DNA of 64,000 nucleotides from an uncultured Hyphomicrobiales bacterium (GTDB lineage Bacteria; Bacteroidota; Ignavibacteria; Kapaibacteriales; UBA2268): the NCBI GenBank assembly GCA_964462685.1, contig CAYWYR010000002.1:68609-132608 (forward strand), written 5' to 3'. A program made the translations under genes and the position numbers. Shown here one piece after another: positions 1,078 to 64,000 of this stretch; the first letter of the stretch is position 1, and the number at the start of each line of letters is the position of its first letter. The notes under the pieces are model-generated. The model made no database searches. It saw nothing but the letters and a program-made list of their open reading frames with translations, and was not told the origin of the DNA.

Positions 1078-1110
1078 AGCCTGCTCTTAGATAGAGCGGG
1101 CTTTTTTTTT
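1078..1110 (+). terminator. Intrinsic terminator of ssrA
   Basis: AGCCTGCTCT-TAGAT-AGAGCGGGCT stem-loop followed by a T run. Confidence 0.8.
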
Positions 1111-1387: not shown

Positions 1388-1562
1388 TATCAGAGACCAC
1401 AAAGCTGGACAGGCTTACGCCAATAAATGAAAAAGCCCTGCATCTCTGCAAGGCTTCTATTATCGTATTTAAATATTAATCTTTCTTGTTACTTAGTTTT
1501 TCGTAAACGATACGTTGTTCAGAATTTTCAATATGAGATTTTACAGCAACAAAATTATTTTC

Positions 1563-2422: not shown

Positions 2423-2423
2423 T

Positions 2424-3395
2424 TTAATAAAGTGGTAAATGTGTGCCAACTGCTTTTCCACCTGTCTGTCCAGTAAAGGGATTCACAAAATTTCCAGGCC
2501 CAAGTCTCGCATCAAATCGTGGAACTTGACTTCCTGCTTCCAATCCTGATCGCGTTGACCCTTGTGCTTTTATTTTTAGTCTCCAAGAAAAGTTACCAGC
2601 ATCATCATAAACACCCCATACTTGAGGCCCTCCAGTATTTGGTCCTTTTACAAAACCTTTACTTTTTGCCCAATTTTGTAGTGTTCTAACATTTTGTTGT
2701 CCAACTTTCGGTAGTTGCTTAACTAATGCATTAAATCCACTCGCCCCCTTAGCGACACCTCCGGTTCCTTCCTCTTTTTTCTTAACCTTCGGTTTGGTTT
2801 TGAGCATCGACCGCCCACCAGAGGCAGCCAATGCAAGAACTTCCTAAGGCTCCATGCTAGAGGCAAGATAGCTCATGTCATCTGTTACCGCGCCAACAGG
2901 GTCTATTCCGCTCATCGTATGTACGAATAGACCGTACCCATAGTTCGCAGCCGTTGCATAGCCGTTATAAACCCGGGTTGTTATAGCGTTTGCCGCAAAA
3001 GCGAAGAACCCGCCACTCTCTACTTGGGGTATGTATGGGACAACCTCGAAGCCCAGTCTTCCTTCGCTAGTGAACTGCGTGGTGTAAGCATCAACTTTGG
3101 CCCCGTATTCGGCGCGCTCCAGGGAATAAGCAGCTTCGGCCGCGGCTTGCATCTGGCGATTGACATGTCCCTGGGCTATGTCGAAGAAAAAGCTATTAGA
3201 ACCAGAACCCATGTCTGATACTGGATCTGGGTCGGCAGTTACGGTAAGTTCATTGTGGTGGAATTCCCCATCCTTCCACTCCCCGTCCGCCCCGAGCGGA
3301 TCGATAATGCTTATCGGGTTATTGTCAAAGGCGTTGTACGGGCTCTGGAACGGGTGTCGAGGCCTATCGAAAATGTCATAGATATTATCAATAAC
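2424..3395 (-). pseudogene. Orphan RHS C-terminal toxin module interrupted by one in-frame TAG (2844-2846)
   Basis: The frame opens at 3395 with no start and encodes HPFQSPYNAFDNNPISIIDPLGADGE. It continues through ORF 2844..3212, a TAG, then in frame EVLALAASGG... to GTHLPLY*. Confidence 0.85.
3281..3356. repeat. 76-nt homology block shared with 4600-4675 (RHS core end, DPLG junction)
   Basis: Hand alignment gives about 67/76 identical positions. Confidence 0.9.
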
Positions 3396-3506
3396 CTATG
3401 GTTTAAATAGATTTACAACTTATTCATAATCACTTCTTACCTTTAGTTATTTATTTTAACTATTACAAATCAAAAATAATTTTACCTTATTGATTCATAG
3501 AACATT

Positions 3507-3776
3507 TTACCACCATTCATCTGGAATATTTTTCATCTGCTCAAAAACATCCCAATCTGTTGGTTTCATTTCGGGTTCAGACCACTCACATTTCATGTCT
3601 TCAATCCAATACAATCTATATTCTCGGTGAAAGGGAAAAGGGTAATCTTGGATTCCAAACTCAACTCCACAACAAGTGCATATATCATATGTAGGATATT
3701 CCCCTTCTTGCCAAATCACATAATCCCCGTAATCAAAACCGCATATCCTACAAATAGTTTCGTCTTTTTTCACCAT
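3507..3776 (-). CDS. Cys-rich (CPCC-like) putative immunity protein of the main RHS toxin
   Basis: CRICG...ICTCCGVEFG motif; overlaps the toxin stop by 7 nt. Confidence 0.7.
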   Translation of the reverse strand: MVKKDETICRICGFDYGDYVIWQEGEYPTYDICTCCGVEFGIQDYPFPFHREYRLYWIEDMKCEWSEPEMKPTDWDVFEQMKNIPDEWW

Positions 3777-5440
3777 ATCTTTGCCTCGATACCTTTTTTA
3801 CTATTCCAAAATTCTTGATTATTTTTAAATTTATGTCCTCTTGAATTATTTAAGCTCTTAGGACCTGGTTTATATAATGTTCGAGGAGTCCCATCAGGTG
3901 CATATGCTCCATATATGTTACTTTTTTTATTCCATAGTATTATATCACCGTTTGGCTGGAACTTAACACTCGTACCTCTTCCAGGATTATTGAAGAAATC
4001 TTCAGCCTTTTTAACGTATTGTGTAGCATTATGCACATCGGGGAAATCAGCTCCATGATCGATAAAGTGTTTCTTCGCATTTTTTGCACGATTTCCATAT
4101 TTGCCTAGTGTCCAAAAACTCTTCTTCGGGCTTCTGGACAACGCACCGTAAAGCATAGCTGCAGCAAATCCCTGTACTTCCTCGTCACCTGCTTCCAAAA
4201 GGTAATTTACGGTGGCCGTAATATCTATGTTACCTATAGAATTAGCTATTGATTTTCCATAATCAATTGGGTCTCTGACAAAATCTGTGATCTCTAAACT
4301 TGTCGTATTAAATAGACTCCAAAGGTTGTAATCTAACCAGTTATTTTCATTTTTTATTCGATTATCTTCTTGATAATAATAAAGATGCGTACCGTTTGGA
4401 TCTACAAAACCTATATTATTTTCATTATTCTGATAGTTAAAGAGATTACCATATGCCAACAAGTGTGTTGCATGTCCATCCGAATTCATTAAAGGGACTG
4501 CATCGGACGGCACTTGGCTTGAACCGCCATCAGGGTTAGGAATCGTTTGGCCATGTGGTTCAATTGGTGAATCTAAGCCATCTGCATCTCCACTTTCTTC
4601 CCCGTCCGCCCCGAGCGGATCGATGATGCTTATCGGATTATTATCAAACGCCGTATAAGGGCTTTGGAACGGGTGAGTGACGGGATCGGGGGACCACCAG
4701 CGGCCGAGATCTGCGTCGTACATCCTAAAATAAGTCGAATAGTGCTTGCCCTCTCCCGTAATTGAGCCTTCTTGATCAGATAGGCCGGTTACGGCTGTTG
4801 CGTCCTCTGTCAGGCGGTTCTCCATTTCCATGTTCTGGAAGCCGTACCTATATAGGTCACTAGCCCAGCTATAATCCTCTATCAAAAGGCCGAACGGGTA
4901 GTAGTTGGAGAGGCTCACAAGCTCAGGCTCGAACGTGCCGCCCGTGTTCCGCCGGGCATCGGTGATTACCGCCCGCACCGACCCCAGATGGTCACGAAGC
5001 TCGAACCGCTTGCGGCCCTGCTGGCGGTACTCTTGCCGCACCGTGTCCCCCGAGCTGTTCAGAAGGCCAAGCGAGTCTGTAGTGCGGTTTTCCAGCAGGC
5101 TGACACGGTAAGGGAAGGTGTTCTTGGGCAGCCACGTCAGTTCCCGCCCCGTGGCACCGTAGGCCGAGTAGTGGGTAAGGTCGGCATCGTCGATGCTATA
5201 TCCCAGATATTCTATCCAAGGCCCGTCCCCTTCATATATGGCCAGTACCTCACCGCCGGCACCGGGAGCGAAGAGAGTAAGGCCAAGCCCGTACTCGCGC
5301 AAAGTGCCGTAGCTGGAGCCGATACCGTAATATTTGGAAACATCCTCCTCGAGGGCGGCCGACCATGTTTGCTCGGCGTACTTGTGCCCTTCGGGTGTGT
5401 ACCAGTAGTCGGTGTGGATCTGGTAGGTCTTCTCGCCCAA
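3770..5440 (-). CDS. RHS repeat-associated core protein with C-terminal toxin domain, 5'-truncated (frame open to 5512)
   Basis: Motifs FELRDHLGSVRAVITD, SNYYPFGL, YRYGFQ, RMYDADLGRWWSPDP and PYTAFDNNPISIIDPLG. C-terminal HFIDHGADF...RTLYKP domain. No ATG or signal region upstream. Confidence 0.9.
   Translation of the reverse strand: MGEKTYQIHTDYWYTPEGHKYAEQTWSAALEEDVSKYYGIGSSYGTLREYGLGLTLFAPGAGGEVLAIYEGDGPWIEYLGYSIDDADLTHYSAYGATGRELTWLPKNTFPYRVSLLENRTTDSLGLLNSSGDTVRQEYRQQGRKRFELRDHLGSVRAVITDARRNTGGTFEPELVSLSNYYPFGLLIEDYSWASDLYRYGFQNMEMENRLTEDATAVTGLSDQEGSITGEGKHYSTYFRMYDADLGRWWSPDPVTHPFQSPYTAFDNNPISIIDPLGADGEESGDADGLDSPIEPHGQTIPNPDGGSSQVPSDAVPLMNSDGHATHLLAYGNLFNYQNNENNIGFVDPNGTHLYYYQEDNRIKNENNWLDYNLWSLFNTTSLEITDFVRDPIDYGKSIANSIGNIDITATVNYLLEAGDEEVQGFAAAMLYGALSRSPKKSFWTLGKYGNRAKNAKKHFIDHGADFPDVHNATQYVKKAEDFFNNPGRGTSVKFQPNGDIILWNKKSNIYGAYAPDGTPRTLYKPGPKSLNNSRGHKFKNNQEFWNSKKGIEAKIW
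4600..4675. repeat. 76-nt homology block shared with 3281-3356
   Basis: Hand alignment, see the 3281-3356 entry. Confidence 0.9.
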
Positions 5441-7682: not shown

Positions 7683-7744
7683 TTGTCTTAATATAAAAAG
7701 AGACGGTTTAAGGAATAAACCTATAGCAATAAGCTTACGGAAAT

Positions 7745-8022
7745 AACCTCTCACCTTTACCACCGTTTGCAATCACCCCGTCTCAATTTTTGGGTACAAG
7801 TACCCTCTCTCTAACACAAACTTAACAATCTTAACCGAATCTTCATATAATATTTTTAATAAAAGATATAATGCTTCGAGTTTGCCAATAGTGTGGAAAA
7901 CGATCCACACAAATATTGAATTATCAATAAATCTTAACAATTAATTCATATTCACTTTACATTAGGCTATTAACTTTGTATTGCTTGATAAAAAAACCTC
8001 TCACCTTTATCACTTCTGCAAT
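7745..8022 (+). repeat. Two copies (7745-7773 and 7995-8022) of AACCTCTCACCTTTAYCAC...TGCAAT
   Basis: 15-nt exact match AACCTCTCACCTTTA plus a shared CAC and TGCAAT. Confidence 0.85.
7934..7978 (+). promoter_or_regulatory. Candidate phoX promoter: 11-bp-spaced TTAACA/TTCATA/TTTACA boxes and a TAACTTTG -7 element
   Basis: Hexamers at 7934, 7945 and 7956; TAACTTTG at 7971-7978. Confidence 0.45.
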
Positions 8023-8162
8023 ACACTGTTTCATATATGAAACAAACTATGCGGATAACCATCTGGCTAAAAATCAAGATAGATTATGTAACCAGATGTG
8101 TGTGAAAAAAGGGAAGCAGAAACAAAACCCTTTATTCATTATCTAATTAGGAGCACTTCGTA

Positions 8163-10052
8163 ATGAAGAAACTCTCTATGGCATTATTAGGGGCGGCCAT
8201 AGCCTCTACTTCGGCAAATGCGTTCGAAGAACAACTAAATATGGAAAACAATACGCTAGAGACTTGGGTACCATCTACAGTTCTAGCTACATCTCCACTA
8301 AAGTACGATGTTATATTCGTAGGTGGAGCAGACATGGTACAGCACACTGCAATCTATGGCGGTGAAGCTGGGATGGCACCTGCTAAGCAGTGGCATGACT
8401 TTATTGGCTTTACTCCTGCCAATGACGACGACAAAGCGAGAATCCCTGGCGTTTACGGTTTCGTTTCTGTAAACCACGAAAGAATCCAGAACCACGACGA
8501 GATCGGTGACGGTGGCGGTATGACTGTATTCGCTGTTGGTAGAACTGACGACGACAGACTAGAAGTACTGGAGCAGACTATTGAGGGTCGCGGAACTGCT
8601 AAGTTTTTCAACGTAGATTTCGTTAACACTGTTGGTGAAACCGGTATGAACTGCGGTGGTATCACTGCACCTGACGGACGTATCTGGACAGCGGAAGAAT
8701 GGTGGCAGTCAAGCCTTGACGGTGCGTTCAGAGACACTGTTGATTTCGTTATCGGTGAGACTACACCAAACGGTTTCCCTGGCTACAATGGTGAGACACT
8801 TGAAAGAGTAGCGAACCTAAACTACATGGTAGAGATCGATCCCCGCTCTGCAGCTGCTGTAAGAAAGCAATACAACTGGGGCCGCCAGCCTTTCGAGGGG
8901 GGAGCGATAACTGACGATATGACAACTGCATACCTTGGCGCTGACGCGACTCCTGGTCTATTTACCAAGTTTGTTGCTGATACACCGGGTGATTTCACTA
9001 GCGGTACTACTTATGTTTACAAGCAGAACCAAGGAAGCTATGCTGGCACTTGGGTAGAAATGGACATGGATAATTTCGATAACGTTCCTAACTTTACACC
9101 AAACGCATTTGCTGTTGGTGGTACTGGATTCAACAGAATCGAGTGGGTAGCTATCGATCCTAACTCCGGACTTGTTTACTTTACAGAAACTGGCCGTGAC
9201 AACCCTGGTAGCAGACTAGAAGGCGCTGTTGAAGCAGGTGGCGACATTGCATACCACCACTATCAGCGTGCTACTGAGCAAGGCTTAGATAGCCCATTTG
9301 ATGGCGATTACTGGGATTACTACGGACGTATCATGGTTTACAACCCTGCAACTAACGAATGTATGCCTTTCCTAGAAGGCGGCCCGTTCTTCGATGTAAA
9401 CAGCAGTAACCATTTCGAAGATGGGAATAACACTGACGGTAGTTTAAACCAAGACTTCCAACCTTATCCTGAAAAGCACCTAACGAACCCTGATGGTCTT
9501 AACTTCCTAAATATCAACGGCAAGTCAATCATGGTAATATGCGAAGACCTTAACGGTACTTCTTACGGCCGAGTTAAGCCGGGTATCGGTAACAGAACTT
9601 GTGAGCTTTTCGTTCTTGATATGGAAAAAGAAGCTACGATAGACAATCTAGTAAGAGTTGGTATTGTTCCTGTAGGAGCAGAAGTAACTGGCGCATGCCC
9701 TACTCCTGATGGCAAAAACCTACTTGTGAACTCTCAGCACCCTGCTACTTACAACGAATATCCTTATAACAACTCACTTACTTTCGTACTTACAGGCTGG
9801 GATGAGTTCATCAACACTAGCGTACAAGAAGAAGGTGTTGTAAACGGCGGTAATGACTTCGGTATCTTCCCTAACCCAACTACAAGAGAGATCAGATTCA
9901 ATGTTGTAACTGATGCAGCTCTTTATGATGTACAGGGTAAGAGACTGAAAGTTGTAACTAACACAGATATGATGGATGTACGTGAATTTGGCCCAGGTAC
10001 TTACTTTGTTAAGAACGCTGCCGGCGACGTTCAGAAGCTTATCATCGAATAA
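8163..10052 (+). CDS. phoX: PhoX-family alkaline phosphatase (DUF839) with T9SS-type C-terminal sorting domain
   Basis: Signal peptide; VNHE, NCGGITAPDGRIWTAEE, GRQPFEG, NPDGL, ICED, GAEVTG and VNSQHP motifs. C-terminal IFPNP...LYDVQGK...GTYFVK...KLIIE. Confidence 0.88.
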   Translation: MKKLSMALLGAAIASTSANAFEEQLNMENNTLETWVPSTVLATSPLKYDVIFVGGADMVQHTAIYGGEAGMAPAKQWHDFIGFTPANDDDKARIPGVYGFVSVNHERIQNHDEIGDGGGMTVFAVGRTDDDRLEVLEQTIEGRGTAKFFNVDFVNTVGETGMNCGGITAPDGRIWTAEEWWQSSLDGAFRDTVDFVIGETTPNGFPGYNGETLERVANLNYMVEIDPRSAAAVRKQYNWGRQPFEGGAITDDMTTAYLGADATPGLFTKFVADTPGDFTSGTTYVYKQNQGSYAGTWVEMDMDNFDNVPNFTPNAFAVGGTGFNRIEWVAIDPNSGLVYFTETGRDNPGSRLEGAVEAGGDIAYHHYQRATEQGLDSPFDGDYWDYYGRIMVYNPATNECMPFLEGGPFFDVNSSNHFEDGNNTDGSLNQDFQPYPEKHLTNPDGLNFLNINGKSIMVICEDLNGTSYGRVKPGIGNRTCELFVLDMEKEATIDNLVRVGIVPVGAEVTGACPTPDGKNLLVNSQHPATYNEYPYNNSLTFVLTGWDEFINTSVQEEGVVNGGNDFGIFPNPTTREIRFNVVTDAALYDVQGKRLKVVTNTDMMDVREFGPGTYFVKNAAGDVQKLIIE

Positions 10053-20059: not shown

Positions 20060-20135
20060 ACTTTTTATATAACTTCCGAATTGTACGAAGTATAATTACC
20101 AATGACTTTTAATTAGCTAACAACTATTATATAAT

Positions 20136-21917
20136 ATGCTCGATAAAAGCCTAATATATCTCTGGACTTTTTTTATCCTGACAGTTTCTGTTACTCTTTC
20201 TGGTTGCGGATCAAGCAAGAATATTACAGCTGATAATTTTCAGGGTTCCAGTAAAATCTCAAAAGGAGATACGGCAACGATAAGTTGGTATTTTAAGAAT
20301 GCTGACAGAACACTGTTTGAAGGTATAAATAAAGATCCTCAGGATTCAATTAAAGTAGCTCCCGAATTTACGACAGACTATAGAATAGATGCGATATCCG
20401 ATAATGACACACTATCGGTTATATGGAAAGTCGAAGTTGAAAACGAAATTGAATCTATACCGAATAGCGATATAAATAATTTTTCATCACAAAGCTTTAG
20501 TGAATCGGAATATCTTATCGGTGTGGATGATTCAGATATTTCGGAGGCCGATATATTAAATCAGTTAAGCAAGCTAAAAGTACTTGCTCATAAATATGAA
20601 GAAGATAAACTACATTTAAATTTAGCATTACTAGATAGATACGGAAATCAGTTGACAGAAATTTTGACTGGTGATCCTAAATTATCATTGACTCTGAAAT
20701 GCAGTGATAATATAAGAGAGCTACCATTAATCAGTATCGATAATTATTTACTCAGCGATGAGATTCCCATTGATATTCTTATAGATGACAGCGGGGATGA
20801 CAGTAAATTAGAATCACTCATAGATCGCATAATAAAGTCGATAAATACTTTAAATATAAATAACGAAGTAAATATATCTTTCCTGAGTAAGAATGATACC
20901 TACAATAATGATAATATTAATATCCCGATAGACTATAATCTCAATAATTCGTATTCTAAGCTATTTAATAAATCTATTGAAAAAGAGAAGCTACTTATTT
21001 ATATAAACAGTACCAACGATAACTCATCGCTTATTTACACGCCTAAAGATATTGTTCTGGCTGCAAAAGATAAAGGTACATCCATTTATATACTTCAATC
21101 AGGTAACGAGGCAGACCCGATGCCTTTGAGATATATTTCCTCAAATACAGCAGGCACTTACTATAATATCGATTCTGATATAAATGATATATTAAAAGAG
21201 ATAGTTCTGGGACGAAAGTATGGAATAAATGCTGTCTTTAATACTGATAATTTGAGTGAGTATCCATGTGATGGAAGATTAACTCTAAACGTTGAAATAG
21301 ACAATTCAGAATTCACAACGTTTTATAATCTTTTAGATGATTCACCGAATCTAATGTCTTCTGATCAGATCTTAGCCCTTTTTGAAAAGAATTCGATAAG
21401 ATACTTATCGGATTATTCTGATAATATCAAAAGATTAGCTGAGACATTAAAAGATAATCCAGGTTATAAGATACAGCTTCTCGGCCACTCTGGTGTCGAG
21501 ACTTCTCAAAACAATATCGCATTAGAAAGAGCAAAGAGTATAAAAGATAAGTTGATCTTGAATGGTATTGATTCTGATCGCATCAATATAAGGGATATGG
21601 GCAACAGTAAACCGATGTACCCATTAGAATCATCGGCTTATCAATCAGCTTATAATAGAAGAGTAGAGGTTAGATGGATTACTCCGCTGACATTCCCGTA
21701 TGAGATCCATGTAGAAAGTGCAGACTCAGAAAATATAGCTTTAGAAAAGTCTTTAAAATGGGAGGATAGAGGATATAGAGTGTATTATGATAGATACATG
21801 GAATCAGGTATTCCATATTACAAAGTTTTGCTATGGGGCTACAGAACAGAAAAAGAGGCTTTAGAGGCTAGCGCAAGGATAAATGACAATTATGGATTGC
21901 TTTCTAAGGTTTTTTAA
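20136..21917 (+). CDS. Lipoprotein with vWA-like, OmpA-like and C-terminal SPOR-like domains
   Basis: Lipobox LSGC; DILIDDSG; IQLLGH...ALERAKSIK...MGNSKP...NRRVEV. The last ~70 aa resemble SPOR (inference). Confidence 0.7.
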   Translation: MLDKSLIYLWTFFILTVSVTLSGCGSSKNITADNFQGSSKISKGDTATISWYFKNADRTLFEGINKDPQDSIKVAPEFTTDYRIDAISDNDTLSVIWKVEVENEIESIPNSDINNFSSQSFSESEYLIGVDDSDISEADILNQLSKLKVLAHKYEEDKLHLNLALLDRYGNQLTEILTGDPKLSLTLKCSDNIRELPLISIDNYLLSDEIPIDILIDDSGDDSKLESLIDRIIKSINTLNINNEVNISFLSKNDTYNNDNINIPIDYNLNNSYSKLFNKSIEKEKLLIYINSTNDNSSLIYTPKDIVLAAKDKGTSIYILQSGNEADPMPLRYISSNTAGTYYNIDSDINDILKEIVLGRKYGINAVFNTDNLSEYPCDGRLTLNVEIDNSEFTTFYNLLDDSPNLMSSDQILALFEKNSIRYLSDYSDNIKRLAETLKDNPGYKIQLLGHSGVETSQNNIALERAKSIKDKLILNGIDSDRINIRDMGNSKPMYPLESSAYQSAYNRRVEVRWITPLTFPYEIHVESADSENIALEKSLKWEDRGYRVYYDRYMESGIPYYKVLLWGYRTEKEALEASARINDNYGLLSKVF

Positions 21918-23613
21918 TAGGGCTGTGAATTGGCAAAGATATATTCATTTGTTTTTTGCCATTATTGATGCTTTTATAGTTGATTTTACCACTCAACAGC
22001 TTTAGGGAGTAATTAAAAAGATTATAGTTAGAGTTTCCGCGCATATAAATATTCATTGGGTCAGATTTGAGATTGTCAGATACAAATTCTAATATTATAG
22101 AGTCATCACTCATTTTAATATTGATATCTATCTTAGAATTATTTTGTGTTAGTAAATAATTCAGTAAACTTCTTATTAGTACAGTGTAAATCTGCTGATT
22201 GATCCTTACATTCTGATTATTGATATCACATGAGATATTAACTTCTCTGTCTTTTAACTCGTGTTTTAGAATATGTTGATTTATTAAATGTATATCTGAA
22301 ATATATCGTTTATCATCGTATCTCTCAATAGTACTAAGATCTAAAATAGTTGTAATATAACCTATGGATTTATTGTATATCTTATCATATTTAATGAAAG
22401 AATCATCAATTATTGATGGATTCGATACTTTTATAAGTTCATATATAGTGATGATATTAAGTAAGGAATCACGAATACCAGCATTAATATTAGCTATTTC
22501 TGATAAAATATCTAGATGAGCGTTGTCACCGTGGTCCCTATTTTCATATATTATATCATTTACTCTTTTCTTATAAATATCTAGATTTTTCTCTAATGTC
22601 TCTATAGTTTTGGATTTATTTATTTGAAGCTTATCTATTTCAGTTTTATAATTATCAGTAATTGTACTGACAAATGATATGTCGATAAATGTTTCAACTA
22701 TTATTTCCTTGAAAGGAAGTTTCACGATACTTGAGTTTCTGATCACAGATATCTTTCTACCGCCCTTTGTAATAAGTGTGCTCGGAAGCTGGCCAAAAGA
22801 AACTGTATATGAGTCAAATATATCATTTAAAAAAACATCTTTCTCAATATCAATAGGTTTATAGTTTGATAGTTCTTCTGCAAAAGGGTTGACATTAATA
22901 ATTTTTTTACTATTGCGATCAGCCAATACTATTCCAGCTTGCACAGTGTCTATAATAGCTGAAAGCTGTCTTTTACTATTGTGTAGTTCTACGGTATTCG
23001 CTTTTATTATCTGATCTTGCTCCTTTACGATATTGCTGTTGGCTTTCTTGAGTTTTACAGATAATAAATCAGCTGCACTGATATCACAGAAATTCTGTAT
23101 TGCCTCCAATAGTGTGATATCTGTTTTTTCCTTGGATACTAAAATCAAAATCCCGTAGAAACCCTCTATAGTAATCAATGGTAATACGGAAACAAATAAT
23201 TCTTCATTGCTATCTGGATGATGAATTACATCTTCTCTGTATGATTTAGTTCTGAGAATCTCTTTTAAAATGTTTTTCTGTTCTATAATGTCATAGATTT
23301 TTTTTATATCTCCAATGTGTTCAATAGGCTCAACTGTATTTTGTACAAAATTAAAGTTGGTATTTAGAGTATATAAACCCAGATATTTTGTATGGTTTAT
23401 AGCAAGAAGAGATAATTGTATTTTCTTTTTAAGGCTGTAATTACTGTCTAGTTCGTTCCGAAATGAAATTAAATTATTTGAAATCTGTATAGAAGATAAT
23501 CCATCGATTTCGATTTTGGAATTTAATTTATCATCGATTCCTTGGTGTACCAAATCAGCTTTCAGACCTTCTAAGTCTAAATCTTCTAAATAGTCTGATA
23601 TATTGATATCCAT
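21904..23613 (-). CDS. PAS-domain protein with degenerate kinase-like C-terminus
   Basis: GIVLADRNSKKIINVNPFAEELSNY is PAS-like. The C-terminal region has HisKA/HATPase-like layout but no clear H/N/G boxes. Confidence 0.5.
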   Translation of the reverse strand: MDINISDYLEDLDLEGLKADLVHQGIDDKLNSKIEIDGLSSIQISNNLISFRNELDSNYSLKKKIQLSLLAINHTKYLGLYTLNTNFNFVQNTVEPIEHIGDIKKIYDIIEQKNILKEILRTKSYREDVIHHPDSNEELFVSVLPLITIEGFYGILILVSKEKTDITLLEAIQNFCDISAADLLSVKLKKANSNIVKEQDQIIKANTVELHNSKRQLSAIIDTVQAGIVLADRNSKKIINVNPFAEELSNYKPIDIEKDVFLNDIFDSYTVSFGQLPSTLITKGGRKISVIRNSSIVKLPFKEIIVETFIDISFVSTITDNYKTEIDKLQINKSKTIETLEKNLDIYKKRVNDIIYENRDHGDNAHLDILSEIANINAGIRDSLLNIITIYELIKVSNPSIIDDSFIKYDKIYNKSIGYITTILDLSTIERYDDKRYISDIHLINQHILKHELKDREVNISCDINNQNVRINQQIYTVLIRSLLNYLLTQNNSKIDINIKMSDDSIILEFVSDNLKSDPMNIYMRGNSNYNLFNYSLKLLSGKINYKSINNGKKQMNISLPIHSPIKKP

Positions 23614-33711: not shown

Positions 33712-35673
33712 ATGCCACAGTTTGAAGATGAAGACATGTATGAGATTTTCGACGGTTTTTTAATTGAAACCGCGGAAATCCTCGATCAGATTTCTCAGGA
33801 TCTTATGCTGCTTGAAAGCGATTCTGAAAACATATCATTAGTAAATCAATTATTCCGGTCGTTCCATACTATTAAGGGTACATCTTCATTTATGGGGTTT
33901 ACCCAGATTTCAGGATTTACTCATGAAGCTGAGGATTTACTAAATAAGCTCCGGAAAGAGGAGCTGAAAGTCAATGAGAATATTGTAGAGCTTTTATTGC
34001 TGTCTCGGGACGCTATAGAAACTATGGTCGATCAGATTAAAAATGATGAAAAAGTACAGACTTTTGATGATTTATTATCTATGATTCAAAAAGCCAAAGA
34101 CGATAAATCTTCTGAAGATACCATGGATGCATCAACAGATAAATCCCTGATCGATTCGGTTAGCCAAATAGAAGGAGAAGGTGATTTCTCAGAAGATGAA
34201 GAAGCGCTTCTGCAAGCAGCTTTCGCAGAACTCAACTCTGAGTTTAACGCAAGCGAAGATGACACATCCGAGGAAAAAGAGGGTTCTGCTCCTGAAATAG
34301 AAAATTCTGAAAATGACATATCAGATGTAGAAGACAATAGTAAAGCAGAAGATGATTCCGATAAATCATCTGATAACGACAGCCATCAGCAATCAGACGA
34401 AAAGAAACAATCCTCTCAAGAGCAAAAAACTGAGAACAAATTACCCGCTAGGAAACCAACGTCTGCAACCGAAACCATAAGAATAGATATCGATCGCATT
34501 GAGTCTATGATGGACTTATCAGGTGAATTGGTACTCAGTCGCAATAGATTAGCTCAAATCACCAATAGGTTAGAAAACAATCCTAATGATCCGCATATTC
34601 TTCAGGAACTAATAGAAAATTATACCCAGCTTGATAAAGTTACCTCAGACATTCAGAACTCCGTGATGAAAATGAGGATGGTACAAGTCGGTAAACTTTA
34701 TCAAAAAGCACCTAGAATAGTTAGAGATCTTTCTAGAGAATTTGATAAAAAAATCAAATTGGTCGTTTCCGGTGAAGATACAGAAATTGATAGAACCATC
34801 ATAGAAGAGCTGAATGATCCACTGGTACATATGATCAGAAACTCCTGCGACCACGGAATCGAGTCTAAAGAAAAAAGACTTGCATCAGGTAAGAGCGAAG
34901 AAGGGCATATTTATTTAGACGCACTTCAGGAAGGTAATCATATTATTCTTAAGATCGGAGATGACGGCGCAGGTATCGATCCGAAAATCATTAAGAACAA
35001 ATGTCTTGAAAAAGGAGTAATCACCCAATCCGAAGCTGATAATATGAGCGATAAGGATATAATCCAGCTTATTTTCGCACCTGGTTTTTCTACTGCACAG
35101 ACAGTTTCCGCTGTTTCTGGCAGAGGCGTGGGTATGGATGTAGTAAGAACGAATATAAAAAAGCTTAAAGGTTCTATAGAAATCGAATCAACTGTAGGAA
35201 AAGGCTCTACCTTTATTATAAAACTTCCTCTTACCCTTGCGATAATTCAAGGTCTGCTTATAGGAATACAAGATGAGATCTATGCTTTACCTCTAACAAC
35301 CGTTGATGAAGTCGTGACGGTAAAAGTTTCGGAAATCGAAGAAGTAAATTCACGTCCAGTTGTCAGGATCAGAAACCAGATAATACCTATTTTCGATCTG
35401 GAGAATATTTTTCAGAACCAGAGCAAGAAAAATGATCAAGATTACTTGAACATCGTAGTTGTAGCACATGGAAACGAAAAATCTGGTATTGTTGTGAGTT
35501 CACTACACGGTCAGCAAGAAATCGTTATTAAAACCTTAGGCCCTTTACTGCAGGGAACCAAAGGTATTGCAGGTAGTACAATTTTAGGCGATGGACGGGT
35601 AATTATGATACTCGATATGGGAGATATATTGGAAGATTACGAGGAAACACATTTAATGGAATCATTTGTATGA
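33712..35673 (+). CDS. cheA: Chemotaxis histidine kinase CheA
   Basis: HPt FRSFHTIKG, HMIRNSCDHG, DDGAGID, GRGVGMDVV and a C-terminal CheW-like domain. Confidence 0.96.
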   Translation: MPQFEDEDMYEIFDGFLIETAEILDQISQDLMLLESDSENISLVNQLFRSFHTIKGTSSFMGFTQISGFTHEAEDLLNKLRKEELKVNENIVELLLLSRDAIETMVDQIKNDEKVQTFDDLLSMIQKAKDDKSSEDTMDASTDKSLIDSVSQIEGEGDFSEDEEALLQAAFAELNSEFNASEDDTSEEKEGSAPEIENSENDISDVEDNSKAEDDSDKSSDNDSHQQSDEKKQSSQEQKTENKLPARKPTSATETIRIDIDRIESMMDLSGELVLSRNRLAQITNRLENNPNDPHILQELIENYTQLDKVTSDIQNSVMKMRMVQVGKLYQKAPRIVRDLSREFDKKIKLVVSGEDTEIDRTIIEELNDPLVHMIRNSCDHGIESKEKRLASGKSEEGHIYLDALQEGNHIILKIGDDGAGIDPKIIKNKCLEKGVITQSEADNMSDKDIIQLIFAPGFSTAQTVSAVSGRGVGMDVVRTNIKKLKGSIEIESTVGKGSTFIIKLPLTLAIIQGLLIGIQDEIYALPLTTVDEVVTVKVSEIEEVNSRPVVRIRNQIIPIFDLENIFQNQSKKNDQDYLNIVVVAHGNEKSGIVVSSLHGQQEIVIKTLGPLLQGTKGIAGSTILGDGRVIMILDMGDILEDYEETHLMESFV

Positions 35674-55415: not shown

Positions 55416-56099
55416 TTACTTTGGAGGTTTATTGATATCAATATTCAAAGCTAACGAAGCACCACCTACTGGATTAGGAACTATCATATAGGAAATATCA
55501 TCATCTACATCAAAATCATAGAGGTGGGCGCCCACATACGCGTCCATTGTAGCAACAAAGTAGGATATACCGAGCAAAAAAAGTGAAAGGTGCGCGTTAT
55601 CCCTAAAATTTTCTTTCCGGTTCAGTACGGTTCTGTTTTCCTGTTCCAAAGTAAACCTTAAAGGATCTGTATCATCCAGAAGAGAAAGGGAAATGATATT
55701 GCTATCATATTGATCTTGCAACGGGAAAAATTTATAGTAATTATAGACTGTAAAACCTGTAAGCATTGAAGCTGATACCAGAAAAAGGCCGCTTTTCAGG
55801 TATGATTCGTTATAGAATTGGCCGCCACCAGGGATAATAGACCAGAGCATGGCAGCGGTAGGGTCTTTTTTCATATCACCCAGCTCAACATCCCCAATGG
55901 TTCTATCACCAGGCACTGGAACAAACGCTGAATCTACAGCCCCAATGGAATCGTTCTGGATGAGGAGAGCTATATCGCTGAGTTCTACAATAGGCACAAT
56001 TCTCATATCATAGTTTTCGTACTCGTCATTTTCCGCACTCCGAAGGATAGTGGAAGATATCAAAATCAAACTGATCATTATATACTTATATAAAATCAT
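55416..56099 (-). CDS. DUF5683-like membrane protein
   Basis: PTAAMLWSIIPGGGQFYN and DAYVGAHLYDFDVDDD. Confidence 0.75.
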   Translation of the reverse strand: MILYKYIMISLILISSTILRSAENDEYENYDMRIVPIVELSDIALLIQNDSIGAVDSAFVPVPGDRTIGDVELGDMKKDPTAAMLWSIIPGGGQFYNESYLKSGLFLVSASMLTGFTVYNYYKFFPLQDQYDSNIISLSLLDDTDPLRFTLEQENRTVLNRKENFRDNAHLSLFLLGISYFVATMDAYVGAHLYDFDVDDDISYMIVPNPVGGASLALNIDINKPPK

Positions 56100-59285: not shown

Positions 59286-60284
59286 ATGAGCCAACCACTA
59301 CCTAATACTTTCGGTGTAGAGTCAGAAGCTAAAGATGTGATTGTGATAAACAGTGAGGACGAGCTTGAGAATCTTGTTGTCGGCAAAGGACTGAAACGAG
59401 ATGATATCCTTATACTGGGTGACGGATCGAATATCTTACCTTCAGGAAATATAGACAAAACAGTTATCCAGATAGGGATGGATGATATGAGGGTAGTTGA
59501 AAAAGGCGAGGAAGTATTAGTTACAGTCGGTGCCGGTAAAAACTGGGATAAGTTCGTAAGGGTGTGCGCACAGAGCGGATACCACGGGATGGAAAACCTG
59601 GCACTTATCCCAGGCAAGGTGGGCGCCGCTCCGGTTCAGAATATCGGCGCTTATGGTGTGGAACAGGATGAGTTTTTCGTATCGCTAAAGGGGTATGATT
59701 TAGAAGAGCGAAAGTTTGTTGAGTTCAATGGGGCCGACTGCAAGTTCGGGTACAGGAACTCTGTATTTAAGAATGAGCTCAAAGGTAGAATCGTAATCTT
59801 ATCCGTTACCTATAAGCTGAGTAAAAAATTCTTTCCAGTTCTTGATTATGGGGGTGTGAGAGAATTCATGTACGAGAATTATCCCAGCGGTTATACGGCT
59901 ATTCAGTTCGTAGATTCCATCTCGCATATAAGGCGGAACAAACTACCCTATCCTGATGAGATAGGTAATGCTGGTTCATTTTTCAAGAATCCAATCATAA
60001 ATAAAGAAACACTGAAAAGCCTGGAAAGTGATTTTCCTGAGATAAGGAGTTTTGCATTCGGTGATGAATATAAGCTATCTGCCGCTTGGCTGATTGACCA
60101 GTGCGGGTGGAAGGGCTTTAGGGATGGTGATGCCGGGATCTATGAAAAGCACGCGCTTATATTAGTTAACCACGGCGGAGCGAGCGGGAAAGAACTATAT
60201 TCTTTATCTGAGAAGATCATAAGCACGGTAAAAGGTAAGTTCGGAATCGAGCTGGAGCGGGAAGTGAATGTTTTGGGTTTTTGA
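59286..60284 (+). CDS. murB: UDP-N-acetylmuramate dehydrogenase
   Basis: GDGSNIL, ENLALIPG, QNIGAYG, GNAGSFFKNP, HALILVN and LEREV. Confidence 0.97.
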   Translation: MSQPLPNTFGVESEAKDVIVINSEDELENLVVGKGLKRDDILILGDGSNILPSGNIDKTVIQIGMDDMRVVEKGEEVLVTVGAGKNWDKFVRVCAQSGYHGMENLALIPGKVGAAPVQNIGAYGVEQDEFFVSLKGYDLEERKFVEFNGADCKFGYRNSVFKNELKGRIVILSVTYKLSKKFFPVLDYGGVREFMYENYPSGYTAIQFVDSISHIRRNKLPYPDEIGNAGSFFKNPIINKETLKSLESDFPEIRSFAFGDEYKLSAAWLIDQCGWKGFRDGDAGIYEKHALILVNHGGASGKELYSLSEKIISTVKGKFGIELEREVNVLGF

Positions 60285-60337: not shown

Positions 60338-60943
60338 TCATTTTTTAATCTTATTAAAAGAAAATTTTATTAAGTACACAACTTGCATCAATAAACATAA
60401 GAGAATAGATGCACGAATATTAAATATCATAAGAACTTGCTCATCTCTATAAAGTTCAGATCCTATTCTTAATAACGAATAGGATATTATGTATATAATA
60501 ATGTAGTATTTTTTTGAGAATGAAATGATATACATTAATATTAACAATATAGATAATTCAATAATTTGAAGATCAATAAATTGATTAGTTAGTAGGTTGC
60601 TATTGCAACACCCAACTGTATAACAACCAAATTTGCCAATAGACTGCAAAATCAACAAACATAATATTATATATTTATCTATAACCTTATTATCAAATAA
60701 CCAAAATATAGAAATGGCAAAGATACCACCTAGCATAGAGTGGTTATATTCTATAGAGTCAGAAAAAGCATACAGTATATTAAAAATAACAAAACCACCA
60801 ACAAGACCTATAATGAGTATAATAATGTAACGTCTGTAAAGTTTACTATAATATTGCAATTTCGTATCTATGAATAAAGAAATAGCTATAGATAAAACTA
60901 TAGCTATATATGACAATACACCAAAACTATTAATAGAATACAT
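60338..60943 (-). CDS. Divergent, short prolipoprotein diacylglyceryl transferase (Lgt)-like protein
   Basis: Highly hydrophobic; IGKFGCYTVGCC (GRxGCxxxGCC-type) and YSLLRIGSELYRD (YxxxRxxxExxR). Confidence 0.7.
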   Translation of the reverse strand: MYSINSFGVLSYIAIVLSIAISLFIDTKLQYYSKLYRRYIIILIIGLVGGFVIFNILYAFSDSIEYNHSMLGGIFAISIFWLFDNKVIDKYIILCLLILQSIGKFGCYTVGCCNSNLLTNQFIDLQIIELSILLILMYIISFSKKYYIIIYIISYSLLRIGSELYRDEQVLMIFNIRASILLCLLMQVVYLIKFSFNKIKK

Positions 60944-61104
60944 ATTAAATAATAAATTTAATAAAGTAATGGATAAGGTATAGGATATGCAGAATAATTA
61001 CAATCTTGTGGATAATAAGTATCACTAGAAGTCCTGTAATCAATTAATTTTCCTTTATTGTCGTAACATTCGACACTAACATGAACTACCACTGTTTTAT
61101 TACA

Positions 61105-61416
61105 TTATATAGGCCAAGTAAAGGAACCTTCAGCATGGGTGAAGTTACTATATTGTGCAGGAGCATTTGCTGATCTAAACCACATATCAACTGGTGTTGC
61201 AGTACCATGGGTAATTTGTACATTTCGCAATGTATATGCAGTACCACTAATAGAATTTTCACAATAAGAGGCATCAAACATTAACGTAAATGAACAATTT
61301 CCTTCGCAATGTCCATTTTTTACTGTTGGGCAACCGCAACAAAAAGCAAATAATGCTAATGATGATACTAATAGCAGTGTAAAGAATATTATTTTATCTG
61401 TGTTATTGATTTTCAT
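61105..61416 (-). CDS. Small Cys-rich exported protein
   Basis: Signal peptide, then FCCGCP...HCEGNC...YC. Confidence 0.6.
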   Translation of the reverse strand: MKINNTDKIIFFTLLLVSSLALFAFCCGCPTVKNGHCEGNCSFTLMFDASYCENSISGTAYTLRNVQITHGTATPVDMWFRSANAPAQYSNFTHAEGSFTWPI

Positions 61417-61418
61417 AC

Positions 61419-62180
61419 TTATTTCACCTTATAAGTAAGTTGAAGTGAAGCACCATAAGTATACAAATAATTTTTATTACTTATTGTAGTATCAATTTGA
61501 TTATAGCCAAATAACTCTACAAAAAAGTACCTATTATTAGGAATACTATTGAGCATTGCAGGTGTAATTGTAAACACTCCATTTTTAGAGGCAGTATGGT
61601 ATTCTTCGTAAGCTTCATTCACAGATATTGTAGAATCCAATAATAGACGCGAAAGTTGTTGGGCACTTCTTATTCTAACAACCATATTTGTCGCATTTGG
61701 AAAAGCTGTATAAGTCAGTGTAAATCCATTACTTTTAGATATAGTTATTGAATCAGGTAAGGGAGTGATTATATCCCCAAAACCTACTCCATTATTTGTT
61801 ATACTGAATGTTGGTACAGTAGTTAAATTACCTACTATATCATAGCTATATGGAGAACCATCATATGGAAGATCATTAGATTTATGTTGATTACTGCTAG
61901 TACCATTAATAATTATGTCTAGTGGAGTGGCTGGATTTCCTGAATTATCATAAAAATACCAATCATGTTTAGAATAATTATTGTATGCTGAAAAGTCATA
62001 CAAATACTTTTTGTAAATAAATGAATATAAATATCCATCTTTACCAACTGGATTATTACTAAAAATATCATATTGATCAACTGTAGAATCTCCAACATCT
62101 GTACTATTCTCATCACAAGAAGTAAATAGTACAAATATTATAAATAAGAAAGAGTATTGTTTTCTCACAATATACCTCAA
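61419..62180 (-). CDS. Lipoprotein (paralog B)
   Basis: Lipobox FTSC followed by acidic DENSTD; 253 aa. Confidence 0.8.
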   Translation of the reverse strand: MRYIVRKQYSFLFIIFVLFTSCDENSTDVGDSTVDQYDIFSNNPVGKDGYLYSFIYKKYLYDFSAYNNYSKHDWYFYDNSGNPATPLDIIINGTSSNQHKSNDLPYDGSPYSYDIVGNLTTVPTFSITNNGVGFGDIITPLPDSITISKSNGFTLTYTAFPNATNMVVRIRSAQQLSRLLLDSTISVNEAYEEYHTASKNGVFTITPAMLNSIPNNRYFFVELFGYNQIDTTISNKNYLYTYGASLQLTYKVK

Positions 62181-62937
62181 TTTGTTAAGTAAAAATATTG
62201 ATCTGTAGATGTGCTACTGTAAAGCATACCTTTTTTTCCGTTAACTACAGTACTATCAAGAAGATGATGTTTGATTGAACAAATATAATATCTATCAGGT
62301 TCAAAATCGATTAAATCTTGAGATGTAAGACTTATTGTTCCATTATCAAGTGCAAAGAAAGTTTTGGATATTGATCCTTGTGGATCTAGTGAATCGTTAA
62401 TTCCAAATTCCCAGTTTAACAACCTGCCACTATCTAGAACTAAAGTAATATCACCATAGCCATGAGAACCTGTATAATCTAAATTGAAACCAGACTTAGA
62501 TACCGTATCGGTTTTAGATGGTGATGTAATTTTCAACCTAGTTGATTGTGTTTGCGATATTGTATGATTCATACCATCGTAGTCGTATAGATGCCAATTA
62601 ATATTAGTATTATGATAATTAGGGTTATCAGTTACATACCTATAAAATCCTTTGGTTGTGGACTTACTAAGTGGTAAATTATCATGAATTACACTGTCTA
62701 TATCTATAAAGCCCGCTATATCGGAAAAAACAGCTTGAAGTTGTAATCTATGATCAGAAAGTTGAGGATTACCCATTATCCAGTATTCATCGTGGGCAGA
62801 AGATATTAATGCAAAATCACCACCTAATGGTACATTAGCTTTTTTGTACTAAGCATATGACTTTCTTCATTTTCATCACAACTACACATCAATACTATCA
62901 TTGCAACTAAAATAAATATTTTTTTCTCACTTAACAT
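62177..62937 (-). CDS. Lipoprotein (paralog A), split at an A_AAA_AAG heptamer (62839-62845); a -1 shift gives 253 aa
   Basis: The leader MLSEKKIFILVAMIVLMCSCDENE... stops at TAG 62824-62826. The -1 frame continues ANVPLGGDFAL... into ORF 62177..62776. Confidence 0.75.
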
Positions 62938-63518
62938 GGGCAATCTCCTGGTACATATAAAGTACCGTCTGATAGTTTTACAATCATTGTTGGTAGTATA
63001 ATATTTACCCCACCACATGGTAAAATTACATTTACATAAGGCTCTGTATTCAACACCCTATAACCTACACATTCGGTTGTATTAGTAAAATTAGGATAGT
63101 CAGAATAATACATTTGTTGTAGAAAAAATTGAAAAGAAATATCAACTTCCATAGTAATGAATTTACTTTGACCTTTCAATTTAACAAATGGCAAATATTG
63201 AAGATCCTCTGGACATACATCTTCACCAAAAACAGGACTATTATAAGGTGCTTCAATATTTACCAAGTCTTTTTGAATAGCATTCGTTTTAACTTCTATC
63301 TGTAAATCTGGTGCATCACAAAATTTTTTGAATGAGGTATATTCTTGTCCTTCAAAAAGAGTGTGAAACTTTATATAATATTCATTTGTGCAACCATCTT
63401 CACGGCATTCTGATCCTGATGGACAACTACTTGCAATTAGAAATGGCAAGCATATAATCATCGCAAATACCAATTTTATTATCTTTATCATATAAATCCT
63501 TGATCGAATTTTTATCAC
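62931..63518 (-). CDS. Cys-rich lipoprotein
   Basis: Lipobox ASSC, then PSGSECREDGC; ends in GDCPC. Start probably at MIKIIK. Confidence 0.7.
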   Translation of the reverse strand: MIKIRSRIYMIKIIKLVFAMIICLPFLIASSCPSGSECREDGCTNEYYIKFHTLFEGQEYTSFKKFCDAPDLQIEVKTNAIQKDLVNIEAPYNSPVFGEDVCPEDLQYLPFVKLKGQSKFITMEVDISFQFFLQQMYYSDYPNFTNTTECVGYRVLNTEPYVNVILPCGGVNIILPTMIVKLSDGTLYVPGDCPC

Positions 63519-63560: not shown

Positions 63561-64000
63561 TTACAATCGCCACTCCAGCATCATCTGATCGCCCACACCG
63601 CCTACTATTGAAGAAAGGCCAGACACGGATATACCCAGTAGCCTAACCGGGTATGGCGGCACTAGTGGATAGCGCAATAATCTTTTTGATACCTCGGCTA
63701 TTTTAAAGCTATCAGCTGTGGGTGTTGATATAGTAGAAGACCTGGTGTTTATATTAAAATCGCTTGATTTGATCTTGACAGTGATGGACTTGCCTTGTAA
63801 CCTGTGCCTTTTGAGACCCTTTGATACTTTTTCGGCAATCGCATCGAGTATCTGCTCCATAATATCGGGGTCGGTTATGTCATTTTGGAAAGTTCTTTCC
63901 GCGCCGAGTGATTTCCTGATACGGTCTGTCTGTACTGGATTGTAATATTCATCGTTGAGGATGTGATAGAAGAACGCACCGCGCTTTCCGAAGTATTTCT
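63561..64000 (-). CDS. dinB: DNA polymerase IV, C-terminal part; runs off the window end
   Basis: KYFGKRG...RIRKSLGAERTF...ITVKIKSSDF...TRS...VRLLGISVS (IMS C-terminal domain). Confidence 0.92.
   Translation of the reverse strand, partial: KYFGKRGAFFYHILNDEYYNPVQTDRIRKSLGAERTFQNDITDPDIMEQILDAIAEKVSKGLKRHRLQGKSITVKIKSSDFNINTRSSTISTPTADSFKIAEVSKRLLRYPLVPPYPVRLLGISVSGLSSIVGGVGDQMMLEWRL

Follow-up and report, generated by a model that had tools for sequence, protein, structure and literature searches.

The DNA analysed here is a stretch of 64,000 nucleotides (nt) of contig CAYWYR010000002.1 (positions 68,609 to 132,608), referred to below as the window. At 60338-63518 it holds five open reading frames (ORFs) on the minus strand, between murB and a dinB-like gene, as had been described in an original prediction made from the letters alone. 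In the direction of reading they encode a Cys-rich exported protein with 10 Cys (p195; 62931..63518, start 63518 or 63491), a disrupted lipoprotein (paralog 1; 62177..62937), an intact lipoprotein (paralog 2, or p253; 61419..62180, start 62180 or 62168), a small Cys-rich exported protein (p103; 61105..61416) and a divergent, short membrane protein (p201; 60338..60943) that profile homology places in the Lgt family of prolipoprotein diacylglyceryl transferases. p201 and its two kinds of exported partner are the subject of this report.

The genes are tightly packed. The stop codon of p195 overlaps the following ATG, that of paralog 1 abuts the start of paralog 2, and only 2 nt separate paralog 2 from p103. 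At the composition of the block, random stops are expected at a rate of ~0.08 per codon, and open frames of 186-249 codons have a chance probability of 1e-7 to 1e-9; the ORFs of the block thus are, or recently were, genes.

The block of 3181 bp has a G+C (GC) content of 29.4%, compared with 39.7% for the rest of the window, and is the lowest-GC stretch of 3.2 kb within it; the spot counts quoted in the prediction (10/60 at 60481-60540 and 20/60 at 61741-61800) are exact. No tRNA, flanking direct repeats or integrase were found around the window copy, and a scan of the AT-rich block for promoters and terminators yielded nothing informative. In direct searches the proteins of the block had no match in Pfam, NCBIfam, PADLOC, PHROG or the PDB sequences, and no match for the cassette was found in a viral contig collection or in PLSDB.

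A conserved three-gene cassette

Co-occurrence of this Lgt subfamily with lipoprotein genes had been set beforehand as the test of the prediction, and it was seen throughout. In 12/12 loci examined, a homolog of the window lipoproteins is encoded directly upstream, and on the same strand, of a close p201 relative; the gene order is constant, and control Lgts lack such partners. The loci read were the metagenome contigs L086/L087, L088 and L089, the last being the same element as L093 from a Candidatus Kapaibacterium metagenome-assembled genome (MAG), together with L092 (Ignavibacteriae MAG HKST-UBA125), L097, L098, L107, L110, L112, L113 and L138. The upstream lipoproteins are 250-290 amino acids (aa) long, have a signal peptide and a lipobox Cys, and carry the same C-terminal motifs as those of the window (DTISKSxGFxLxW, LSNGKK and LTN). 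Wherever sequence is available, the lipoprotein gene is preceded by a gene for a Cys-rich exported protein. The order in the window is p195, the frameshifted paralog, p253, p103 and p201. The three-gene core is found in the same order in L092, L093, L097, L098, L107, L110, L112 and L138, and its last two genes, again in this order, in L086-L089 and L113.

A lipoprotein hidden Markov model (HMM) built from members outside the window matched paralog 2 with an E value of 4e-12 and the body of paralog 1 with 2e-8, the next-best score among the 367 ORFs of the window being 0.055. In a rough neighbour-joining tree, drawn without support values, the enzymes linked to the cassette fall into one group. 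The partner proteins as a group have no match in Pfam, NCBIfam, PADLOC, PHROGs or the PDB sequences.

The lipoproteins of the window

Paralogs 1 and 2 are 28% identical (BLASTP E 2e-4) and have the motifs SCDEN, SKS-GF-L-Y, NG...T and RY in common. Paralog 2 probably starts at the GTG at 62168, as in the Joint Genome Institute (JGI) gene call, which gives a protein of 249 aa. It has a putative lipobox (VLFTSC-DENSTD) that contains the single Cys of the protein, and a C-terminal beta-rich domain with the family motifs ITISKSNGFTLTY, NNRYFF and ISNKN. An AlphaFold2 (AF2) model based on an alignment of five sequences was poor (predicted local distance difference test score, pLDDT, 42), with beta strands at 153-252. 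Searched by itself, paralog 2 had no match in Pfam, NCBIfam, PDB, PADLOC or PHROG; a word-indexed search with p253 returned only the query, and a profile made from an alignment of the lipoprotein family recovered no more than four proteins.

In paralog 1 the signal peptide and putative lipobox (MLSEKKIFILVAMIVLMCSC-DENEES) are read from the ATG at 62937 for 37 codons, up to a TAG, and the body of the protein (199-223 codons, ending at 62177) lies in the -1 frame relative to this part. The switch of frame is confined to 22 nt around a run of six A at 62840-62845, and a product of 253 aa would need either one extra A or a -1 ribosomal slip. L001 and L002 share this frameshift. Two paralogous lipoproteins of 253 aa each had been predicted; the paralogy stands, but paralog 1 is not an intact ORF of that length. 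Programmed frameshifting was considered for the heptamer A_AAA_AAG, the classic slippery sequence for a -1 shift, which lies in the zero frame at 62839-62845 on the minus strand with a zero-frame TAG 15 nt downstream. It is not supported, as no stimulatory structure follows downstream (z -0.04) and the window has as many as 55 copies of this common heptamer; that it is in phase is the automatic outcome of one A having been lost from a run of seven. The frameshift is regarded here as a mutation that may permit low-level slippage.

The lipobox recognised by signal peptidase II (SPII) follows the rule [LVI][ASTVI][GAS]C (PMC12462473). Paralog 2 (FVLFTS-C) and paralog 1 (VLMCS-C) fit this rule at -1 and -2 and have F or M at -3; homologs elsewhere have LIGC, FIGC, IVSC, FTAC, TIAC and LTAC. 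In the lipoprotein export signal (LES) of Bacteroidota, a polar or basic residue is followed by at least two acidic residues after Cys+1, as in K-(D/E)2, SDDDD and SDDFE (PMC5080379). The anchor Cys is followed by acid-rich sequence both in the window (C-DENSTD and C-DENEES) and in the homologs (C-SEDT, C-SEEP, C-SDKS, C-EEAP, C-KENN, C-EKTI, C-NNDN and C-KKDK), some of which are off the LES consensus. This stretch resembles the Bacteroidota signal and fits a predicted exposure of the lipoproteins on the surface of a bacterium of the Fibrobacteres-Chlorobi-Bacteroidetes (FCB) group that bears a type IX secretion system (T9SS).

p201 is a divergent member of the Lgt family

Direct searches with p201 gave no PF01790 match even at E<=1, no NCBIfam match and no match among the PDB sequences, and the protein does not score against TIGR00544, NF000778 or PF01790. 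A word-indexed (k-mer) search of 5.8 billion proteins returned only p201 itself, and an exact 39-mer from it was absent in 185,579 species genomes. An exhaustive HMMER search of 1.84 billion cluster representatives yielded 21 relatives of 135-255 aa (E 4e-7 to 7e-4), and every one of the 21 matches PF01790, the best at 7.8e-39. Aligned with E. coli Lgt (5AZB; E 3e-23), the profile of these relatives covers residues 25-151 and 195-282, two blocks between which the periplasmic head (~152-194) is left out. Built without the window sequence, the profile matches p201 over its full length at E 9e-36 and matches nothing else in the window, in which no other Lgt-family ORF was found. The earlier description of the 201-aa protein as Lgt-like is borne out in that the motifs are present; membership of the superfamily follows by remote, transitive homology only. 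The other cassette-linked enzymes are also distant from the standard model, with 0-70 bits against TIGR00544 (cut-off 118.9).

The signature of E. coli Lgt reads G142-R143-L-G-N146-F-I-N-G-E151-L-W-G154, and R143 in it has been called absolutely conserved. The corresponding segment of p201 is G103-K104-F-G106-C107-YTV-G111-C112-C113-N-S115, where K104, C107, C112 and S115 take the places of R143, N146, E151 and G154 and the equivalents of G142, G145 and G150 are kept. Further along, Q126 and E129 correspond to Q199 and E202, and Y155, R159, E163 and R166 to Y235, R239, E243 and R246, residues that are essential in the E. coli enzyme and form its catalytic hydrogen-bond network (PMC4728403, PMC8689077). 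R159 and R166 are invariant in the alignment of 22 sequences, the equivalents of Y235, R239, E243, R246 and E202 are invariant or nearly so across the cassette-linked clade, and p201 retains every residue that is invariant in its clade. Its changes with respect to E. coli Lgt are R143K, Y26F (F7), N146C, E151C and G154S. The HGGL motif, which in Lgt belongs to arm-2, is unclear (H103 corresponds to N67, with H68 one position off), and the cassette-linked clade as a whole does not conserve it. Lgt has seven transmembrane helices, a periplasmic head domain and two arms. In p201 only 21 residues, compared with 57 in E. coli, lie between the signature and the equivalent of Q199, most of the head being missing. 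A single-sequence AF2 model of p201 was poor (pLDDT 54), with ~7 predicted helices, and a Foldseek search with this poor model gave no meaningful match. Judged from the alignment, the putative donor-activating half of the active site is conserved in p201, and the other half is changed.

In E. coli Lgt, activity is abolished by R143A/E/K, Y26A/F/Q and E151A/Q and severely reduced by G154A (Mao et al. 2016, PMC4728403), and N146A causes complete loss (PMC8689077). The replacement of R143 by Lys in p201 had been put forward as a sign that its chemistry might differ. This part of the prediction is not supported. All cassette-linked enzymes without exception have the signature GK-x-G-C...G-C-C, and it also occurs in Lgts of 253-265 aa from Flavobacteriales/Bacteroidetes and Elusimicrobiota MAGs. 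Three Bacteroidota loci with such GK-type Lgts of ~260 aa, carrying GKIGCFMAGCCHG, have the conserved context greA-HIT-lgt-holB (L094 7710-8489; L100 7698-8471; L103 ~7707-8492) and score 105-113 bits against TIGR00544 (cut-off 118.9); GK-type Lgts in housekeeping contexts as a whole score 105-183 bits against Lgt models. Since Lys at this position is also found in Lgts of housekeeping context, the exchange alone is no argument for a new chemistry. Some Bacteroidota appear to have Lys here as the housekeeping state, despite the inactivation of E. coli Lgt by R143K, and the E. coli mutational data are not literally transferable to this branch of the family.

A 230-aa relative of the GR/Cys type, P0003, is encoded immediately after lspA. 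Neither this gene nor the GK-type genes in the greA-HIT-lgt-holB context have the cassette partners, and a metagenome scan gave 16/18 GK-type matches without a neighbour of the lipoprotein family. Shortness, a Cys-type signature and Lys at 143 are each, taken alone, no mark of a non-housekeeping enzyme. Two Lgt-family genes ~6 kb apart were seen on L101, a contig of a Bacilli MAG: one (1093-1896, minus strand) encodes 267 aa without the Cys signature, the other (7713-8393, plus strand) 227 aa of the GK/Cys type, and the latter may be another accessory paralog.

The Cys-rich proteins

The Cys-rich partners contain 10-12 Cys, with a cluster straight after the N-terminal hydrophobic segment (SYCDCNCTIC, NNNCCDPPVVC, NDCDCNGDG or AASCDDCC) and a CxxC or CxC motif within the last eight residues (CSKCGG, CSECI, CHKCSL, CAPCN, CIDCF or CLCYCD). 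p195 is the positional counterpart of this first gene of the cassette. It probably starts at the ATG at 63491, giving 186 aa (JGI gene call), and has the same architecture, with the N-terminus MIKIIKLVFAMIICLPFLIASSC-PSGSEC..GC, in which the Cys cluster reads ASSCPSGSEC..GC, and the C-terminus GDCPC; it has no Pfam or NCBIfam match. Six of the partners form a well-conserved family, type A, characterised by GYEINYGFWSKDSY and WFIERHTV.R.WPL.DDPPRDV. No significant similarity was found between p195 or p103 and the type A family, or between p195 and its counterparts in L098 and L138; p195 and these two counterparts have only the architecture in common with the others. In most Cys-rich partners the residue before the first Cys is Y, N, F or D.

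p103 begins with MKINNTDKIIFFTLLLVSSLALFAFCCGCP and ends after 103 codons at a TAA (61105-61107). Behind this stop the same frame stays open for 48 more codons (60958..61104) with three more Cys, for which the chance probability is ~0.02, and when this continuation is counted the gap between p103 and p201 shrinks from 161 to 14 nt. Together the two parts are probably an ancestral gene of 152 codons interrupted by a nonsense mutation. p103 has no homologs in the family libraries (Pfam, NCBIfam), and copies of the cassette in other genomes lack such a gene.

Mobility, selection and decay

The chromosomal neighbours of the cassette differ in every host. In the window they are dinB and murB; L093 has a GT39-like gene and propionyl-CoA carboxylase, L092 has folP and an extracytoplasmic function (ECF) sigma factor, L088 has lpxC and L110 a sulfotransferase, and in both L097 and L107 the neighbour is trigger factor. 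Contig L138 (MWWK01001167.1) has 5407 bp with an exact terminal overlap of 127 bp and thus represents a circular molecule of ~5.28 kb, resembling a plasmid or another small replicon. It carries a ribbon-helix-helix (RHH)-like ORF (315-551), a rolling-circle initiator of the Rep_1 type (827-1978; PF01446, E 1e-12) and, as its sole cargo, the trio of Cys-rich, lipoprotein and GK-type Lgt-like genes (2334-4679). The cassette is therefore mobile. That the block in the window had been acquired, as predicted, agrees with its low GC, the host-specific neighbourhoods, the lack of a Pfam or NCBIfam family for the partners and the copy on a circular rolling-circle replicon of 5.3 kb. In AT-rich hosts the GC content of the cassette is 28-30%, at or below that of the flanks (30-40%); low GC as an intrinsic property of the cassette is ruled out by the L138 copy, which has 52% GC.

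The ratio of nonsynonymous to synonymous substitution rates (dN/dS) was calculated between L097 and L107. The Cys-rich gene has a value of 0.05, the lipoprotein gene 0.10, the Lgt-like gene 0.22 and the flanking trigger factor 0.04. All three cassette genes are under purifying selection in this pair. The dS of the Lgt-like gene (L097 1506-2189, L107 2376-3053) is about double that of its neighbours, which hints that the enzyme gene was replaced or recombined within the cassette. In L107 the cassette is immediately followed, before trigger factor, by three small ORFs of 86, 46 and 56 aa (3159-3713); they have no Pfam match, and a likeness of the last to a small toxin-like protein was seen only by eye.

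Some copies are damaged. That of the window has an expanded layout, with a duplicated lipoprotein gene and an extra small Cys-rich gene, and is partly decayed. The frameshift of paralog 1 and the TAA of p103, both overlooked in the prediction, are identical base for base in independent assemblies, namely four JGI metagenomes and one Sequence Read Archive (SRA) run, and since both lesions recur in five independent assemblies they are real alleles, assembly errors being unlikely. They are limited to the two extra genes; the core trio of p195, paralog 2 and p201 is intact. L092 (6307-7903) is an independently decaying copy, with three in-frame stops in the Cys-rich and lipoprotein genes (a TAG, a TAA in place of the conserved Tyr of GYEINYGFW and a TAA after the lipobox region) and an intact Lgt-like gene. 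The Lgt-like ORF of L110 (8815-9423) diverges past P-L-Q-L-F-E, lacks R-x-x-x-E-x-x-R and ends 32 nt before the end of the contig, so that it may be truncated, frameshifted or an artefact of the assembly end.

Genomic context and host

Downstream of the cassette and convergent with it is murB (59286..60284, plus strand; PF01565, PF02873). On the other side, a Y-family polymerase gene resembling dinB (63561..64000, minus strand; PF00817, PF11799; 369 aa in L001) is co-oriented with the cassette, and its 3' end at 63561 lies 42-69 nt upstream of it. Relatives of MurB reach at most 49% identity, without synteny, and those of the ROK kinase at most 31%. The window also encodes a PhoX-like phosphatase with a T9SS C-terminal sorting domain (Por_Secre_tail; 8163-10052), a CheA chemotaxis kinase (33712-35673) and a DUF5683 protein (55416-56099). 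These markers, together with the MurB identity of at most 49%, point to a motile bacterium of the FCB group with no close representative among the 185,579 species genomes.

A transfer-messenger RNA (tmRNA) gene at 680-1051, with the tag peptide AEDNYALAA, is the only Rfam/ARAGORN match in the window. A second low-GC patch, at ~20100-23600 (30-31% GC), encodes an OmpA-family protein of 593 aa, a PAS-domain protein of 569 aa and an HDOD protein of 286 aa.

Interpretation and alternatives

The block in the window is a copy of a conserved, mobile envelope cassette of three genes, and we suggest, at about even odds (a probability of roughly 0.5), that this cassette encodes a dedicated, probably active Lgt-family transferase. 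The core, in order, consists of an exported protein with 10-12 Cys, a predicted SPII-type lipoprotein of 250-290 aa and an Lgt-family membrane protein of ~200-270 aa, the last of which would act as a thiol lipid-transferase dedicated to the cassette. The residues that serve in E. coli Lgt to hold and activate the donor are kept (Y235, R239, E243, R246, E202 and a basic residue at 143), whereas positions facing the acceptor or the first phosphatidylglycerol site are altered (Y26F, HGGL, N146C and E151C) and most of the head is gone. Activity and dedication are proposed because the phospholipid-activating residues are invariant, because the residues on the acceptor and selection sides and the head are changed, because the gene was never found without its partners in the clade, and because one copy is on a plasmid; a plasmid-borne copy is not the housekeeping Lgt of its host.

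Diacylglyceryl, or a related lipid, would most likely be transferred to a Cys of a protein encoded by the cassette. The best candidate acceptor is the Cys-rich partner, since in most copies the residue at -1 of its first Cys (Y, N, F or D) departs from the lipobox rule and a housekeeping Lgt would not be expected to accept such a site; the -1 and -2 residues of the lipoprotein partner are ordinary. With an enzyme of its own, the membrane anchoring of the product would be independent of the host. A bolder version of the proposal, which we put forward as speculation with the odds clearly against it, is a self-contained, transferable lipidation system with a new acceptor and possibly a new donor specificity, in which the CC/CxC cluster would be lipidated outside the lipobox rule and rolling-circle replicons would spread the system among FCB-group bacteria, remodelling their cell surface.

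Several observations weigh against an active, dedicated transferase. The substitutions in p201 (R143K, Y26F and those at N146, E151 and G154) each inactivate or impair E. coli Lgt singly, and with these changes and no clear HGGL motif p201 could be inactive or have another activity. Conservation within the L097/L107 pair is lowest for the Lgt-like gene (57% aa identity, compared with 94% for the Cys-rich protein and 87% for the lipoprotein), an unusual pattern if this gene encodes the catalytic core. Of ~12 copies, 2 (window and L092) have frameshift or nonsense lesions, and the L110 enzyme has no R-E-R motif. The Cys-rich partners fall into at least two groups unrelated in sequence, which weakens the case, and sites close to the canonical lipobox in p195 (ASSC), L138 (AASC) and L092 (SSSC) speak against an atypical acceptor.

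Part of this evidence would be explained if the cassette were an effector/immunity or exclusion module, in which the Cys-rich protein would be a disulfide-rich toxin, bacteriocin or receptor-blocker, the lipoprotein a release or exclusion factor, and the Lgt-like protein a dead immunity or scaffold protein. Small colicin-type plasmids carry toxin, immunity and lysis-lipoprotein genes, and the trio as the sole cargo of a 5.3-kb rolling-circle replicon has the typical format of a bacteriocin plasmid. The presence in p201 of changes that kill E. coli Lgt (R143K, Y26F, replacement of N146 and E151; PMC4728403), the fastest evolution in the Lgt-like gene and the frequent inactivation of copies (window, L092) would also be accounted for. 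A dead enzyme, however, would not be expected to keep the network of Y235, R239, E243, R246 and E202 invariant or nearly so across the clade, and GK/Cys-type signatures occur in Lgts of housekeeping context as well. Unlike fast-evolving toxins, the Cys-rich protein is the most conserved of the three (dN/dS 0.05), and no toxin or immunity protein was matched in PADLOC, PHROG or Pfam. We regard such a module as an unlikely explanation of the cassette.

It is also doubtful that the copy in the window has lost its function and is being discarded as AT-rich acquired DNA, with the cassette still functional elsewhere. All five independent assemblies have the frameshift and the p103 stop, p201 has diverged furthest within its clade, with Ser for G154 and no direct Pfam match, and the three in-frame stops of L092 show that such decay occurs. 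Against this, the core genes have remained open over 186, 249 and 201 codons at 29% GC, each with a chance probability of 1e-7 to 1e-9, the gene junctions are still packed or overlapping, p201 keeps all clade-invariant residues, and the lesions are found only in the two extra genes that the core cassette lacks elsewhere.

That p201 is instead the housekeeping Lgt of the organism, with the lipoprotein neighbours incidental, is very improbable: although there is no second Lgt-family ORF in the 64-kb window and a short Cys-type Lgt of 230 aa can serve as the housekeeping enzyme (P0003 beside lspA), p201 scores nothing against TIGR00544, NF000778 and PF01790 where housekeeping GK-types reach 105-183 bits, the genes of its clade are strictly linked to two partner families at 12 loci with different flanks each time, one copy is on a plasmid-like replicon of 5.3 kb, the L110 copy has no catalytic motif, and the GC content of the block is island-like.

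Comparison with known systems

In the usual view, Lgt is a single, essential housekeeping enzyme that works by one lipobox rule, and an antibiotic target. If the proposal of a dedicated, active transferase is true, the cassette would hold the first substrate-dedicated, horizontally transferable Lgt, and would provide a natural experiment on the Lgt residues that set acceptor and donor specificity, in which R143K, Y26F, N146C, E151C and the loss of most of the head are tolerated. It would also add two new envelope protein families in the poorly studied Ignavibacteriota and Kapabacteria. The three-gene unit is compact, with 2.3 kb and one copy on a 5.3-kb replicon. The system had been predicted to be possibly undescribed, and this is consistent with the absence of family models for the partners and of matching literature: no paper was found that describes the linkage of an Lgt-family gene to dedicated partners of the lipoprotein and Cys-rich kinds, or such a gene as the cargo of a plasmid.

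The closest known enzyme is E. coli Lgt (5AZB/5AZC; PF01790, TIGR00544), for which phosphatidylglycerol is the donor of the diacylglyceryl group placed on the lipobox Cys. Its G-(R/K)-x-G-x-x-x-x-G motif in transmembrane helix (TM) 4 aligns with p201, as do P-x-Q-L-x-E (Q199/E202) and the TM6 motif Y-x-x-x-R-x-x-x-E-x-x-R, which binds and activates the lipid donor (PMC4728403). Unlike this enzyme, p201 has 201 aa rather than 291, with ~36 residues of the head gone, and is encoded in a mobile cassette with dedicated partners and not in a housekeeping context.

In Actinobacteria, extra copies of the Lgt family exist beside the housekeeping one, as with Lgt1 and Lgt2 of Streptomyces. These are full-length and chromosomal, and differ from p201 in having no reported linkage to substrate genes or mobile elements. 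For the second homolog in M. smegmatis, in which conserved residues are changed, PMC12462473 gives the activity as unknown or reduced.

Two further systems resemble the cassette in layout or in mode of transfer. lit2, a transmissible lipoprotein intramolecular transacylase on mobile copper-resistance elements of Listeria and Enterococcus, is likewise an accessory, horizontally transferred enzyme that alters the lipidation of host lipoproteins; unlike p201 (Armbruster et al. 2019, cited in PMC8689077), it belongs to the unrelated Lit family (4 TM), acts on all diacylated lipoproteins and has no co-encoded substrates. The lpl cluster of the S. aureus island nuSa-alpha (PMC4470592) also consists of tandem paralogous lipoprotein genes in a genomic island, but it has no dedicated lipidation enzyme or Cys-rich partner and belongs to an unrelated family and phylum.

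The archaeal proteins AliA and AliB (PMC12462473) are, like p201, highly divergent and possibly Lgt-derived lipidating enzymes, and these paralogs differ at two catalytic basic residues. They are archaeal housekeeping proteins with marginal similarity to Lgt (HHpred 29%), whereas the p201 clade is clearly within PF01790. Set beside these systems, the superfamily of the enzyme is known, and the cassette, its two partner families and its mobility appear to be new.

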